In this document: positions 13,564 to 16,940 of the stretch, one piece after another
Numbering within the stretch: position 1 is the stretch's first letter
Layout of the letters: each line of letters opens with the position of its first letter
Source of the DNA: a plasmid
Strand: one strand, 5' to 3'
Length of the DNA stretch: 64,000 nt
Sequence record: NZ_CP086424.1
The notes under the pieces: model-generated
Seen by the model: the letters and a program-made list of their open reading frames with translations, nothing else
Told to the model about the DNA's origin: nothing
Database searches by the model: none
Made by a program: the position numbers and the translations under genes

Positions 13564-13742
13564 GGCGTCGGCCTCCGCAGCGACTTCCACGATGGGGATC
13601 GGGCGAGCAAAAAGGCAGCAATTATGAGCCCCATACCTACAAAGCCCCACGCATCAAGCTTTTGCCCATGAAGCAACCAGGCAATGGCTGTAATTATGAC
13701 GACGCCGAGTCCCGACCAGACTGCATAAGCAACACCGACAGG
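13557..13742 (-). pseudogene. qacEdelta1: qacEdelta1, 5'-truncated remnant (3'-CS2 boundary)
   Basis: Identical to the 3' 186 nt of the complete qacEdelta1 at 24671..25018. Identity with the other 3'-CS copy stops at about 13742. Confidence 0.8.
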
Positions 13743-14251
13743 GGCAATGCCGTTGCCAGGCGTTTGTTGGCATGTTGGCTGCGCTCGGTTTCAACCCGCA
13801 CCGACAGGCCGCTGGCGATGTGGGTCGCGCGGATGGCCGAGTCTGTGGTGTTCACGTGCTGCCCTCCTGCGCCCGAGGCGCGGCAGGCCTGAAAGTGGAT
13901 TTGCTTATCCAGAGCCTTGTCATTGACCTCAAACATCTGGCCGCTGAAGAACCAGTTTTTGCGTTTGTGCCCGGGTCTGAAGCGGCTTTGGCAGCTCCAG
14001 AGCATGGCTCCCTGCCAAGACAGCGCCAAGTGCTTGGCCCGGGCTTCATCATTGGCACTGAGTTGCAGCAAGACCGACTTGAAGCAGGCGACGCCGGTTT
14101 TAGCGTTTGCCTGAGTCACCTCCAACAACTCGCAGCCTATGCCTTGCGCCTGACACTCCCGCTCTATGGTTTGCACCGCCAGGGCCACAGCGCGGCAGCA
14201 TTCAATCGGGCCGGTTCCGGCCGACAGTTGCAGTAGTATCATCAGCAGCAC
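13694..14251 (-). CDS. prfH: peptide chain release factor H-like protein (GGQ motif), 3' end replaced at the 3'-CS junction
   Basis: [39 protein letters not shown], a class I release-factor GGQ domain. The start overlaps the rtcB stop. The last roughly 15 codons derive from qacEdelta1-side sequence. Confidence 0.75.
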
Positions 14252-15405
14252 TCCCCGTTGGTTTTGAAGGTCAGCACAGGGCGCAGCCTGGCAACAACCT
14301 CAATCAAACCGGCATCGACCATATCGCCAATCACAGTCGCACATTTTTTGTAGGCCTGGGGCGCTTCGTCATACAGCAGTGTCTTGTTACCGCAGATCAC
14401 CCGGCTTCCCAGGGCGGTGAGGTAGAGATCTTCACGGCGGAACTTGTGCGCCAGGCGGCCCTGACACTCGCCGCGCTGCCATTTTCTCCCGGCACCATGA
14501 GCCAGGGAAAACAGGCTGATGTCGGCGGCATCGCCCGCAGCGGCGCAGGGTTTCACCAGGTAGCTGTAGTCGCCGCGGGATCCCGGGATCACCACATAAC
14601 CCTTATCGCTCGGGGTGGCGCCTTTTCGGTGCAGCCAGCCTTGGGTTCCGTTTATGCACTTGGGGGATACCAGATTGTGGTTCACATCCAACACCAAGCT
14701 GCCAGAGCTGTTGATCGCTTCCAGGAAGCGACAGGCTATCAGCTCGCGGTTCAACTCAGCCCAGCGTAGCGCCTCATCGTGTTTGGCCAGATAGTCGCTG
14801 AACTCGCTATCTTCCGGACTCAGGCCTTGGTGGCTGTGGCGGCGGATATGTTCCTGCAAAATTGCCTGCCCCAGGCCTCTGGAGCCGGAATGCACCAGCA
14901 GTTGCAGATAGCGGCTGTCCAGCCCCAGCTCTTGCAGCGCCGCCTGGTCATAGACAGTTTCTATCGCTTGAAACTCGGCAAAATGGTTACCGGCACCTAT
15001 GGTGCCCAGCGCCTGGTCAAAGCCTGTGATGGCTATGCCTTTTTCCCGCTTGCGCTCGGCAATTGTTTGCGCCCAGGTTTCATCCAGAGGCTGTTCTATC
15101 TGTTTGAACTTGTTTGCCATCTTATCCAGCTTGACCTTGGATAGCTTCAGCGAGCTCTGCCACAGTGACATGCCGCAGCCAATGTCGTTGCCGACCAAGG
15201 CAGGATAGATTCTGTTGACGGCAAAAAACGCCGCACCAATGGGATAGCCTCTGCCGGGGTGCAGATCCGGCATTCCTGCCACGTGCTGCATACAGGCCAA
15301 TTCAGAGGTTTTAATCAGTTGTTGTATTGCCAGCCCTTCTACCCAGGTTTCTTTGGATGCAATCAGGCTGACGCTTTCAGTAAGTTTTTGGACGGATCTG
15401 CCCAT
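14242..15405 (-). CDS. rtcB: RtcB-family RNA ligase (387 aa), paired with prfH
   Basis: RtcB motifs (metal-binding His/Cys, ...HGAGR...). Confidence 0.85.
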
Positions 15406-15742
15406 AGACCAATTCCTTTAAACAGGATTTAAACGATAAACGTATTGGCAGGCCAGTTGACCGAAGCGATAGCTTTACCAGAAAGCTATGAAATCAGTGG
15501 ATAGCTTTCTGCTATTTAGCGGACAAGACCTGCAAAGGAGGTTGATGTGTTTTGCATGATGTTTTCTCCTCTACAGTGAATGAATGGTGAGCGATGCGGG
15601 CGCATGGTAATCAGTTTGCCACCATAAGGCAAATATAAATTCAATCACTTAGCTTTATTTGCCGCCGAACCCTATGGCAAGTGCGTCAGCTTGGGATTGC
15701 GGCCGGGGCAGCCGACCGCAGAAAGAGGCTACTGTTTCAGGC

Positions 15743-15780
15743 CATGATTTAAAGTCATGATTTAAAGTCATGATTTGAAA
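15743..15780 (+). repeat. tandem direct repeat, 2.9 copies of CATGATTTAAAGT
   Basis: catgatttaaagt catgatttaaagt catgatttgaaa. Confidence 0.7.
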
Positions 15781-15819
15781 CCACACCAAGAAGCCGAGAT
15801 AGAACTTTCACTTGCCGGG

Positions 15820-16167
15820 TTAAGGCAGCGGTTGGCGGGGCTTGGCCTTGTCACTTTTGCTGTGTGCCAGTTCAAGCACTTGTTCAAAGTCCAGACCATT
15901 AATCTTTTGCCCTATCAGGCCGAAGTCCATCTGGCCGTTGCGATCCGAGTGGTTCAGCGCTGCCAATGGGGTGTCGAACTCGGCCAGTTGGATTGCCAAC
16001 AAGGCCATGACAAATTCCTGCTTGTCATGGGAGTTCAGCTGCGCCATGAGTCTGATGACATCCTGTTGGGTCGACTCTGCACTGCTGCCGTCGAAGACTA
16101 TGGTGTTGGGGGTAGTGCTGCAGGCCATCAGGCCGGTCAAAACGATAGCAATTATTATATTCTTCAT
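15820..16167 (-). CDS. putative lipoprotein (115 aa)
   Basis: Signal peptide with lipobox LMAC|S. The opposing + ORF 15775..16215 was rejected. Confidence 0.5.
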   Translation of the reverse strand: MKNIIIAIVLTGLMACSTTPNTIVFDGSSAESTQQDVIRLMAQLNSHDKQEFVMALLAIQLAEFDTPLAALNHSDRNGQMDFGLIGQKINGLDFEQVLELAHSKSDKAKPRQPLP

Positions 16168-16505
16168 GAGCTAACTTCCGTTTTTTCGGTGTTCTACTTC
16201 CGTGCTGGCTTGTGATCGCCCTGTGGCATTCTCTCGAAGCGCCGCTGGTCTGGGGTACAGTTCCGGCCAACAGCAGTGTCAAGGGCACAGGCTCGGCAGA
16301 AGCGAATAATAAATTAAACCGCGACTCTAACAGTTTGAGATCAAAATTTTTTGAGTCGAGTCAAACAATTGACATATAAGGAAAAGGTTTGATTTTTGTG
16401 AGGTGTCCCTGTTGCAACAGCCTTGGCCGCCCCTCTTCCTTGAGTCAATCTTTACAAACAGGTTACAGAATACCTCACCCTAAATAGGGCGACAAGTCAT
16501 AGTGA

Positions 16506-16940
16506 TCATTTATCCAACTTACCCAGATTGCAATCTTCACAAAGTATTTGCATGTTATTAATATCCAGCGCTTTGTGCGGGTACTTGCTGCGGGGCAAAA
16601 TATGGTCTACATGCAGCACTATATTGTGTTCGGCTTTAGTGCGATTGCACTCTACACATTTGTGTTCGTGAGTTTGCAGCACCTGATATCTGAGTGCCAG
16701 CCAGGCTCTGGATTGATAAAAGTTATCTATGGTTTTGGGCTCGAACTCGCTGAGCTGCTCCGGATGCTCAAAGGCGCGGTGGCCGAGTTCGGGGGAAAAG
16801 AAGCTGGCCTGAATATCGGCCTTGTCCTGATGCTTGCTGAGCCATTTCCAAATGCCGCGCAGGGCACCTTGCTCACTCTTGTAACGCCGGGTTCTTATGC
16901 TGTCTCCAGTGCGAAAAGTGACTTGGATTTCCAGTTCCAT
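16506..16940 (-). CDS. HNH endonuclease (144 aa)
   Basis: C-terminal HKCVECNRTKAEHNIVLHVDHILPRSKYPHKALDINNMQILCEDCN HNH motif. Confidence 0.75.
   Translation of the reverse strand: MELEIQVTFRTGDSIRTRRYKSEQGALRGIWKWLSKHQDKADIQASFFSPELGHRAFEHPEQLSEFEPKTIDNFYQSRAWLALRYQVLQTHEHKCVECNRTKAEHNIVLHVDHILPRSKYPHKALDINNMQILCEDCNLGKLDK

Follow-up and report, generated by a model that had tools for sequence, protein, structure and literature searches.

When a resistance integron carries a ribosome-repair operon, is that operon still a working defence, or has it only been taken along? The question arises in a 64,000-nucleotide stretch of plasmid DNA (sequence record NZ_CP086424.1; hereafter, the window), in which rtcB, a gene for an RtcB-family RNA ligase, overlaps prfH, a gene for a release-factor-like protein with a GGQ motif, in the same unit as qnrA. 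A first-pass annotation of this DNA left the choice between a non-functional passenger and a partly functional module. Here we describe an rtcB that is intact, a prfH that has lost its 3' end, and an origin of both genes in the chromosome of Shewanella algae. We put at roughly 0.8 the probability that the pair is passenger DNA, most likely of neutral effect.

A complete rtcB and a truncated prfH

14242-15405, minus strand: rtcB, complete, encoding a PrfH-coupled 'RtcB2' type RNA ligase of 387 amino acids
13694-14242, minus strand: prfH open reading frame (ORF), ATG at 14242, stop at 13694; 182 amino acids (185 from an upstream GTG)
13744-14242, minus strand: native part of prfH, codons 1-166 of 211, with GGQ at residues 126-128 (...SGAGGQHVN...)
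13694-13743, minus strand: foreign tail of 16 codons plus stop, an out-of-frame reading of a qacEΔ1 remnant

Judged from profiles and alignments, the RtcB2-PrfH pair is real and far beyond chance. Both ORFs lie where the first-pass annotation had placed them, both products score above the cut-offs of their subfamily profiles, and the rtcB stop and the prfH start share base 14242, so that the predicted overlap is there and is 1 nt long. RtcB matches NF007153 (543.5 bits, cut-off 407, residues 1-386) and TIGR03073 'release_rtcB' (519.3 bits, cut-off 271.8) over its full length, and Pfam RtcB with E = 3.8e-71. Its assignment to the RtcB ligases is borne out on alignment, with the catalytic His and Cys residues all present: the metal ligands D74, C77, H141, H172 and H243 align with P. 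horikoshii D95, C98, H203, H234 and H329, N140 aligns with N202, and the nucleophile H303 aligns with the guanylylated H404 and lies within an invariant AHGAGRKW motif, as does H294 of E. coli RtcB2. The protein differs from ten S. algae chromosomal copies at 2-11 residues; the change S323R is specific to the plasmid lineage and is found in none of the ten. In other genomes, prfH lies directly 3' of rtcB in 79 of 80 cases. Because the gene is complete and keeps every catalytic residue together with its own promoter and leader, its product is probably an expressible, active 16S rRNA ligase.

The PrfH of the window scores 208.6 bits against TIGR03072 'release_prfH' (IPR017509; cut-off 166.65), but the match covers profile positions 1-162 of 200 only and leaves 163-200 unmatched, and of the 116 positions of the Pfam RF-1 domain only 9-64 are matched. 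The protein aligns with RF2 from about residue 120 onward, as a homologue of class I release factors without domain 1. Its native sequence, which runs to residue 166 (…ANKRLATAL), is identical to that of S. algae chromosome L101 and identical or near-identical to four PrfH proteins of 211 amino acids (L092, L093, L099 and L101), and a 211-residue PrfH is listed at all ten S. algae chromosomal loci. The plasmid protein has thus lost 45 native residues (167-211 of 211; 21%) and gained 16 that derive from qacEΔ1. A loss of the native C-terminus at the junction with the second 3' conserved segment (3'-CS2) had been proposed before and is confirmed; its size had been set at 15-35 residues and is larger, since full-length homologues run 45 residues past the native end in the window. 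Public protein sources call the truncated protein plain 'peptide chain release factor H' and leave the truncation unmentioned.

To see which parts of PrfH are missing, we used the E. coli protein (PDB 7SA4 chain 8), with which S. algae PrfH aligns over its whole length (E = 3e-50) at a numbering offset of +6, which puts S. algae residue 166 level with E. coli residue 160. E. coli PrfH consists of a GGQ domain (108-161), a linker 2 that is part of a long helix (162-179) and an rRNA-recognition domain made of residues 2-98 and 180-204; R189 stacks on the cleaved A1493, sandwiching A1493P, while H184 and R181 bind C1914 of helix 69 (PMC9304027). What remains in the truncated protein is the GGQ domain and, of the recognition domain, the N-terminal 98 residues. 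Gone are the linker-2 helix and the C-terminal strand or strands of the recognition domain, and also S. algae H190 and R195, which correspond to E. coli H184 and R189. A family profile match and the GGQ motif are therefore present in this PrfH, and a complete recognition domain is not.

The pair is the end of one Shewanella algae block

21892-23433, minus strand: ISCR1 transposase gene; the ISCR1 end adjoins S. algae DNA at 21659/21660
about 23838-25018: first 3' conserved segment (3'-CS1)
12096-13743, minus strand: 3'-CS2, made of the 3' 187 nt of qacEΔ1, then sul1 and orf5
13744-21659, minus strand: captured S. algae chromosomal block, 6595 bp without IS10, colinear with ten chromosomes (L092-L101)
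17418-18074, minus strand: qnrA allele (NF000071 QnrA, 514 bits), the selected cargo
18125-19436, plus strand: IS10/ISVsa5, upstream of qnrA, with a 9-bp target duplication AGCGCTGCC at 18116-18124 and 19437-19445
18153-18222, minus strand: RNA-OUT/pOUT of IS10 (Rfam RNA-OUT, 98.8 bits), facing qnrA

By sequence, the pair lies in a complex class 1 integron of the classical ISCR1 type, carried by a conjugative IncC plasmid. The part of the window from 37 to 58 kb has 100% identity to many conjugative IncC plasmids. Read along the minus strand, the order is 3'-CS1 (qacEΔ1-sul1), ISCR1, foreign DNA (21659-13744), 3'-CS2, tniB and tniA; there is thus an ISCR1 transposase gene, foreign DNA 3' of ISCR1, and then a second 3' conserved segment truncated at its 5' end. 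Identity to 3'-CS2 begins exactly at 13743, which equals position 24857 in 3'-CS1 and lies 161 nt into qacEΔ1; 3'-CS2 is without these first 161 nt, and a second copy of sul1/orf5/tniB-tniA begins at the same base. The first-pass annotation was right to describe rtcB-prfH as cargo of an ISCR1 unit on a conjugative element.

What that annotation did not recognise is that the whole block, qnrA included, is one piece of S. algae chromosome. We found the donor chromosomes by exact look-up of the neighbouring lipoprotein; a scan for RtcB in species-representative genomes gave a best match only 75% identical, with no S. algae genome among the results. The block is colinear with ten chromosomes of 4.6-5.1 Mb, with 96.6-99.8% identity over 21659-19437 and 18124-13744, and these two parts overlap by 9 bp in the chromosome, which is the IS10 target duplication AGCGCTGCC. 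The block contains the region upstream of a TrmO-like gene, the TrmO-like gene itself, SBP_bac_3, qnrA, orf91, HNH, lipoprotein, rtcB and the truncated prfH, and all ten chromosomes have the same gene order: TrmO-like, SBP_bac_3, qnrA, 91 amino acids, HNH, lipoprotein, RtcB (387 amino acids) and PrfH (211 amino acids). There, rtcB-prfH naturally lies about 2 kb downstream of qnrA, and prfH is followed by a Sel1-repeat gene and then by a variable island. The best chromosomal match to the part from qnrA to prfH has 9 mismatches in 4381 bp, and protein sources name the members of the cluster Shewanella algae. In the window, S. algae DNA stops at 13744 and, at the ISCR1 junction, at 21659/21660. 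Taken together, these alignments show rtcB-prfH to be the distal end of one contiguous 6.6-kb piece of S. algae chromosome that carries qnrA; because the block is colinear with the chromosomes, the pair was not collected separately.

A second capture or insertion, in which rtcB-prfH was acquired apart from qnrA and placed between the Shewanella fragment and 3'-CS2, has next to no probability left. The composition of the DNA could suggest it, with a G+C content of 59-60% in rtcB-prfH against about 50% in the part from qnrA to HNH and a step around 15000-15400. It would also fit that the S. algae DNA of qnrA3 plasmids ends exactly upstream of rtcB, and that a qnrA2-bearing Shewanella plasmid (L002) has no rtcB ORF listed beside its lipoprotein gene and has a 463-residue ORF there (6320-7711). 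In all ten S. algae chromosomes, however, rtcB-prfH directly follows the lipoprotein gene, with no break and with 98-99.8% identity across the whole stretch, and this colinearity rules out a separate capture. As the high G+C content of rtcB-prfH is already found in the donor chromosomes, the composition step predates mobilisation. The arrangement in L002 indicates that rtcB-prfH may be absent at this position in the lineage that donated qnrA2.

Compared with the closest chromosome, L101, the 9 mismatches are clustered at 14439, 14696 and 14716 and at 17593-18119. The six in or just upstream of qnrA give 3 amino-acid changes and the three in rtcB give 2, and the intervening 2.9 kb has no mismatch. 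On the chromosomes, each S. algae strain has different genes downstream of prfH and the Sel1-repeat gene (L092-L101, about 12600-20348), and the Pfam families of these genes are ones linked to phage defence or to toxin-antitoxin systems, among them NERD, retron Ec48 RT, HipA/HipB, RexA, AAA_15/DUF4435, PRTase-CE/ORC-CDC6-like and KAP NTPase. From these gene contents, it looks like the ribosome-repair operon of S. algae borders a variable defence-island hot spot.

Why the pair is read as a passenger

Published work found that, at the natural expression level, only the complete rtcB2-prfH operon protected, and the catalytically dead PrfH variant Q122E abolishes protection in vivo (PMC9304027). 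With the linker-2 helix and the C-terminal part of the recognition domain gone, the truncated PrfH would be unable to recognise a ribosome with colicin-E3-type damage. The two-step pathway of rescue and then repair would be broken, and little or no protection would be expected at native expression from a low-copy plasmid. Because PrfH is needed at natural expression levels, we read the pair as a passenger: selection would act on qnrA, whose expression would additionally be driven by the IS10 pOUT just upstream, and rtcB-prfH would come along for the ride. At most, a residual ligase-only activity may persist.

The partly functional module that the first-pass annotation had set beside the passenger loses ground with the rRNA-contact residues, and the balance moves toward a non-functional pair. 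What is left of it is a benefit from the ligase alone, which we consider unlikely. In that case, intact RtcB2 would by itself re-ligate 16S rRNA cleaved by colicin E3 or CdiA-CT and give an advantage in gut competition, with PrfH dispensable or replaced by a host PrfH or other rescue factors. Several observations count in its favour and so weigh against a mere passenger. RtcB is complete, has all of its catalytic residues and keeps its native leader; when over-expressed, RtcB2 protects E. coli from colicin E3 on its own, and in vitro it can by itself ligate 30S and 70S ribosomes cleaved by E3 (PMC9223846, PMC13166195). The pOUT of IS10 and qnrA are both 5' of rtcB and on its strand, so that read-through could raise rtcB transcription, and hosts with a chromosomal prfH of their own could complement the PrfH defect; an rtcB query matched in 1347 of 5426 complete E. 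coli genomes (about a quarter), with prfH adjoining in both loci inspected. The rtcB gene is also undecayed in all retrieved copies, but these came from an exact-protein look-up and are thus uninformative on selection. On the other side stand the requirement for the complete operon and for a catalytically active PrfH described above, the free-energy folds of the leader, which hide the rtcB ribosome-binding site, the good spread of qnrA3 and qnrA1 units without rtcB, and the low copy number of IncC plasmids.

The PrfH-qacEΔ1 fusion could instead have a new activity, as an unspecific GGQ peptidyl-tRNA hydrolase or a dominant-negative A-site binder that affects host translation or stress tolerance. 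The GGQ domain is kept in the fusion, as are the equivalents of E. coli R83, H86, R88, K89 and N90, and the fusion ORF is intact on at least 21 contigs. Yet the recognition domain is a single fold (2-98 plus 180-204), and without its second part and the connecting helix it should either come unfolded or leave the GGQ domain wrongly oriented; the 16-residue tail arises by accident from qacEΔ1 in a foreign reading frame, and the copies are too recent for the integrity of the ORF to signal selection. We therefore regard a new activity as very improbable and retain the reading of the pair as passenger DNA.

By exact-protein look-up, the identical RtcB is found on at least 40 and the identical PrfH on at least 21 Enterobacteriaceae contigs, and the island always carries qnrA; on some contigs it is a variant that adjoins a class A beta-lactamase gene or a metallo-beta-lactamase gene. 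The rtcB-prfH part of the island was in no record of the plasmid collection searched. Non-resistance cargo thus travels with qnrA into clinical Enterobacteriaceae, and counts of PrfH or ribosome-repair systems in this family should treat this PrfH as disabled.

Proposed capture by ISCR1 and relation to other qnrA units

How did the block come to end inside prfH? The ISCR1 model attributed to Toleman et al. and dated 2006 is said to take the 3'-CS2 boundary as the old left end of the transposing truncated-qacEΔ1/sul1/ISCR1 unit, and the boundary at the ISCR1 end reportedly as the place where rolling-circle replication stopped. Following this standard model, from which we infer the steps of capture, a truncated qacEΔ1-sul1-ISCR1 unit would have entered the prfH gene of an S. 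algae strain behind codon 166. Read-through by rolling-circle replication would then have brought the neighbouring chromosomal DNA, as far as qnrA and 3.5 kb past it, into a circle, and the circle would have recombined into the 3' conserved segment of a class 1 integron that is now on an IncC plasmid.

In qnrA3 IncC plasmids, 3'-CS2 starts at the same base, 161 nt into qacEΔ1 (6244/6245 of L001 equals 13743/13744 of the window), while their S. algae DNA ends at the window equivalent of 15456, as compared to 13744 here, and is 1.7% divergent. The shared start of 3'-CS2, together with different end points in divergent DNA, suggests that the neighbourhood of qnrA in S. algae received one and the same qacEΔ1-sul1-ISCR1 unit on two occasions, once in the rtcB leader (the qnrA3 units) and once in prfH (the unit described here).

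The known ISCR1-qnrA units, those with qnrA1, the qnrA3 IncC units (for example pECL-14-60-NDM-1-IncAC) and the qnrA2 unit of pHDC555-1, have the same layout of ISCR1, a Shewanella qnrA fragment and a truncated second 3' conserved segment. The qnrA1 units carry an ampR remnant and are of the In36/In37 type. At 6.6 kb, the unit of the window is the longest among those compared (the qnrA3 unit has about 2.7 kb). It differs from the others in its 3.5 kb upstream of qnrA, in its extension downstream through rtcB into prfH and in the IS10 upstream of qnrA. An environment with IS10 and two ISCR1 copies is described for qnrA6 of Proteus mirabilis (Jayol 2016, as cited in PMC7046756); the allele of the window is not established as qnrA6. 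The presence of the pair in a qnrA ISCR1 unit is already annotated in sequence records, and in the library of papers searched, none contains both 'qnrA' and 'rtcB'. As a clean natural record of gene capture by ISCR1, the unit offers a donor, S. algae, both junctions, and a 3'-CS2 end that is common to the qnrA3 units.

Comparison with known RtcB systems

By the features compared, the system of the window is of the known RtcB2-PrfH kind: its RtcB has the family features tested and its PrfH falls short of a complete recognition domain. The closest characterised relative is the RtcB2-PrfH operon of E. coli ATCC 25922 (Tian et al. 2022, PMC9304027, PDB 7SA4; Maviza et al. 2022/2026, PMC9223846, PMC13166195), which has the same TIGR03073 and TIGR03072 families in the same order. 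The two loci share the overlapping stop and start, the GGQ motif, the catalytic His and the architecture of an upstream leader, and the RtcB of the window is 54% identical to E. coli RtcB2. They differ in that the PrfH of the window is native up to the counterpart of E. coli residue 160 and then runs into a foreign 16-residue tail, and in that the window locus lies inside a plasmid integron, while the E. coli locus lies between yafP and pepD.

A natural precedent for a disabled copy is the rtcB2-prfH remnant of E. coli K-12 and O157, in which a deletion of about 1 kb takes away rtcB2 sequence at the 3' end and prfH sequence at the 5' end (Baranov et al. 2006, PMC1586002). The K-12 remnant is likewise a naturally disabled operon, and shows that the pair is dispensable and often decays. 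The internal deletion in K-12 hits both genes; in the window a mobile-element junction has cost prfH its 3' end only and has left rtcB complete.

The rtcBA operon of RtcB1, which is regulated by RtcR and sigma-54, has an RtcB-family ligase in common with the window, but the window locus is without rtcA, rtcR and a sigma-54 promoter. RtcB1 repairs tRNAs and not the E3-cut 30S subunit (PMC9304027).

A conserved leader upstream of rtcB

15408-15632, minus strand: native rtcB-prfH control region, complete in the window
15632-15627 and 15609-15604, minus strand: putative -35 and -10 (sigma-70-like, TTGCCT-N17-TACCAT)
15578-15566, minus strand: segment a, with the Shine-Dalgarno sequence (SD) of the upstream ORF
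15557-15516, minus strand: 13-codon upstream ORF MQNTSTSFAGLVR, behind a strong SD
15540-15527, minus strand: segment b
15510-15480, minus strand: hairpin
15454-15444, minus strand: segment c/c'
15419-15413, minus strand: rtcB SD
15413-15408, minus strand: segment d

What controls the pair? A sigma-54/RtcR-type promoter between 15406 and 15820 had been suggested as something to look for. With the pattern TGGCAC-N5-TTGCW and up to 2 mismatches there is no site in that interval; over the window the pattern occurs 41 times, below the chance expectation of 45, and neither rtcR nor rtcA is among the nearby ORFs. We thus rejected sigma-54/RtcR control of rtcB-prfH. A simple scan for sigma-70 promoters and terminators over 13600-18300 found nothing above chance, and missed the promoter-like TTGCCT-N17-TACCAT.

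The region between this promoter-like sequence and rtcB is conserved across about 150 rtcB2-prfH loci (L003-L082, L102, L104-L183). An upstream ORF of 13-16 codons behind a purine-rich SD of the GGAG/AGGA type (consensus AAGGAG) is present in 80 of 80 other gammaproteobacterial (marine) loci, and an upstream ORF with an SD is also present in E. coli and in distant metagenomic enteric relatives whose RtcB is 60-84% identical to that of E. coli. The conservation is at the level of RNA: the core CCUUUGCAGGUC is nearly without synonymous change. We rejected the peptide of the upstream ORF (…SFAGL[IV]R) as the conserved entity, since its F, A and G codons are nearly without synonymous variation and enteric loci read the core in another frame (…LCRP…). 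Rfam gave no match for the leader. In term searches, the key rtcB2-prfH papers leave a leader or upstream ORF unmentioned, a full-text search of Maviza 2022 (PMC9223846) found nothing on operon regulation, and wider literature searches found nothing relevant.

Three pairings can be drawn in the leader. In helix A, the core pairs with the SD region of the upstream ORF (CUGUAAAGGA : UCCUUUGCAG). Helix B joins the core to a segment farther downstream (GCAGGUC : GACCUGC), and in helix C, the bases that follow this segment pair with the rtcB ribosome-binding site (GCCAAU : AUUGGU), with a 2-base overlap between helices B and C. For helix B there are compensatory variants, GCAGAC:GUCUGC in E. coli and GCGGGC:GCCCGC, GCGGACA:UGUCCGC, GCAGAUC:GAUCUGC and GCAGGUA:UGCCUGC elsewhere. 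When we compared 68 distinct leaders with shuffled ones that were uncorrected for shared ancestry, 95.8% of helix B cells were paired as compared to 90.2±0.7 in the shuffles, and there were 38 double-change cells as compared to 11.9±4.7; 0 of 500 shuffles, which again ignore ancestry, reached either the paired fraction or the double-change count, and 4 of 7 pairs have a compensatory change. When the partner was slid by 1-3 columns as a control, 17-46% were paired. For helix C, compensatory variants read by eye are CCAUU(U)CC:GGAAUGG, CCCA:UGGG, CCUA:UAGG and GCUAAUUCA:UGAGUU[AA]UAGC. RNAalifold on the raw MAFFT alignment gave helix B only. When 12 diverse leaders were folded to minimum free energy, nearly all formed helices A and C, and when the start region of the upstream ORF was blocked, which mimics a stalled ribosome, helix B formed in 10 of the 12; these constrained folds predicted no clean, consistent opening of the rtcB ribosome-binding site in the 12 leaders.

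Based on these pairings, we hypothesise that the leader is a four-segment translational attenuator that reports ribosome performance. The core CCUUUGCAGGUC would have two alternative partners, the SD of the upstream ORF and a downstream segment that, when not paired to the core, helps to mask the rtcB ribosome-binding site. A ribosome stuck at the start of the upstream ORF, for example one damaged by colicin E3, would free the core for the downstream pairing and so open rtcB-prfH to translation, and the repair operon would be made only when ribosomes are damaged. That 15408-15632 is a previously undescribed cis-regulatory leader of RtcB2-PrfH operons, with a core that pairs in two ways and senses ribosome performance, is a tentative proposal to which we give a little less than an even chance. 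If it is true, the plasmid copy keeps the switch, and Enterobacteriaceae that bear the island would have a damage-inducible RtcB2.

Among known systems, trpL and ermCL are translational attenuators with a leader peptide. The rtcB leader likewise has a short ORF preceded by an SD and three successive, partly exclusive pairings, of which 1:2 hides the SD of the upstream ORF, 2:3 is the alternative and 3:4 hides the downstream ribosome-binding site. Unlike in trpL and ermCL, the peptide is unconserved, the frame of the core differs between marine and enteric loci, and segment 1 is the upstream ORF's own SD. Inspection by eye of the E. coli rtcB leader, the one locus examined for this, gave no terminator-like U-run behind the stem. 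For translation biology, the conserved leader is the more useful by-product of this work, as an element that can be mutated to test the sensing of decoding-centre damage.

Several E. coli lineages (L103, about 2070-2386; L104, L149 and L154) have a repeat-like insertion (…GTAAGTGACTGGGGTGAACGA…GCAACTTGAAGTATGACGAGTATAAATGG) between segment c and the rtcB start, and in L103 the part of the leader with the upstream ORF was not found in the 400 nt before rtcB. The leader variants of these four lineages are natural material for tests of leader function.

qnrA, IS10 and the neighbouring genes

16506-16940, minus strand: HNH endonuclease gene (Pfam HNH, E = 3e-9), identical to the S. algae chromosomal copy
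15820-16167, minus strand: gene for a DUF6694-like lipoprotein of 115 amino acids, with 100% identity to the S. algae chromosomal protein

The minus strand of 13694-18074 holds five ORFs and a truncated sixth (qnrA, a 91-residue ORF, HNH, lipoprotein, rtcB and prfH). The first-pass annotation had grouped the HNH endonuclease with the pair. The gene is real and lies near rtcB-prfH, but none of 80 other genomes has HNH, lipoprotein, the 91-residue ORF or qnrA within the 10-kb flanks of rtcB, and prfH is present in 79 of these. Because of this absence HNH is not a component of the module; by this comparison, the HNH and lipoprotein genes are S. algae neighbours outside it.

The qnrA allele has 99.2% DNA identity to qnrA3 and is not qnrA1; the exact allele was in no record of the plasmid collection searched. 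By its coordinates, the IS10/ISVsa5 copy upstream of it is 1312 bp long, and its outside end reads CTGAT|TGGTAAAAATC. Set against the IS10 outside-end sequence, this end would lack 17 bp of the terminal repeat, in which case the copy is probably immobile. Its RNA-OUT/pOUT is intact and is directed into qnrA and the genes that follow, rtcB among them. A short run of direct repeats (aaatcatgacttt aaatcatgacttt aaatcatggcc; 15742-15777, minus strand) separates the lipoprotein gene from the promoter region of rtcB.

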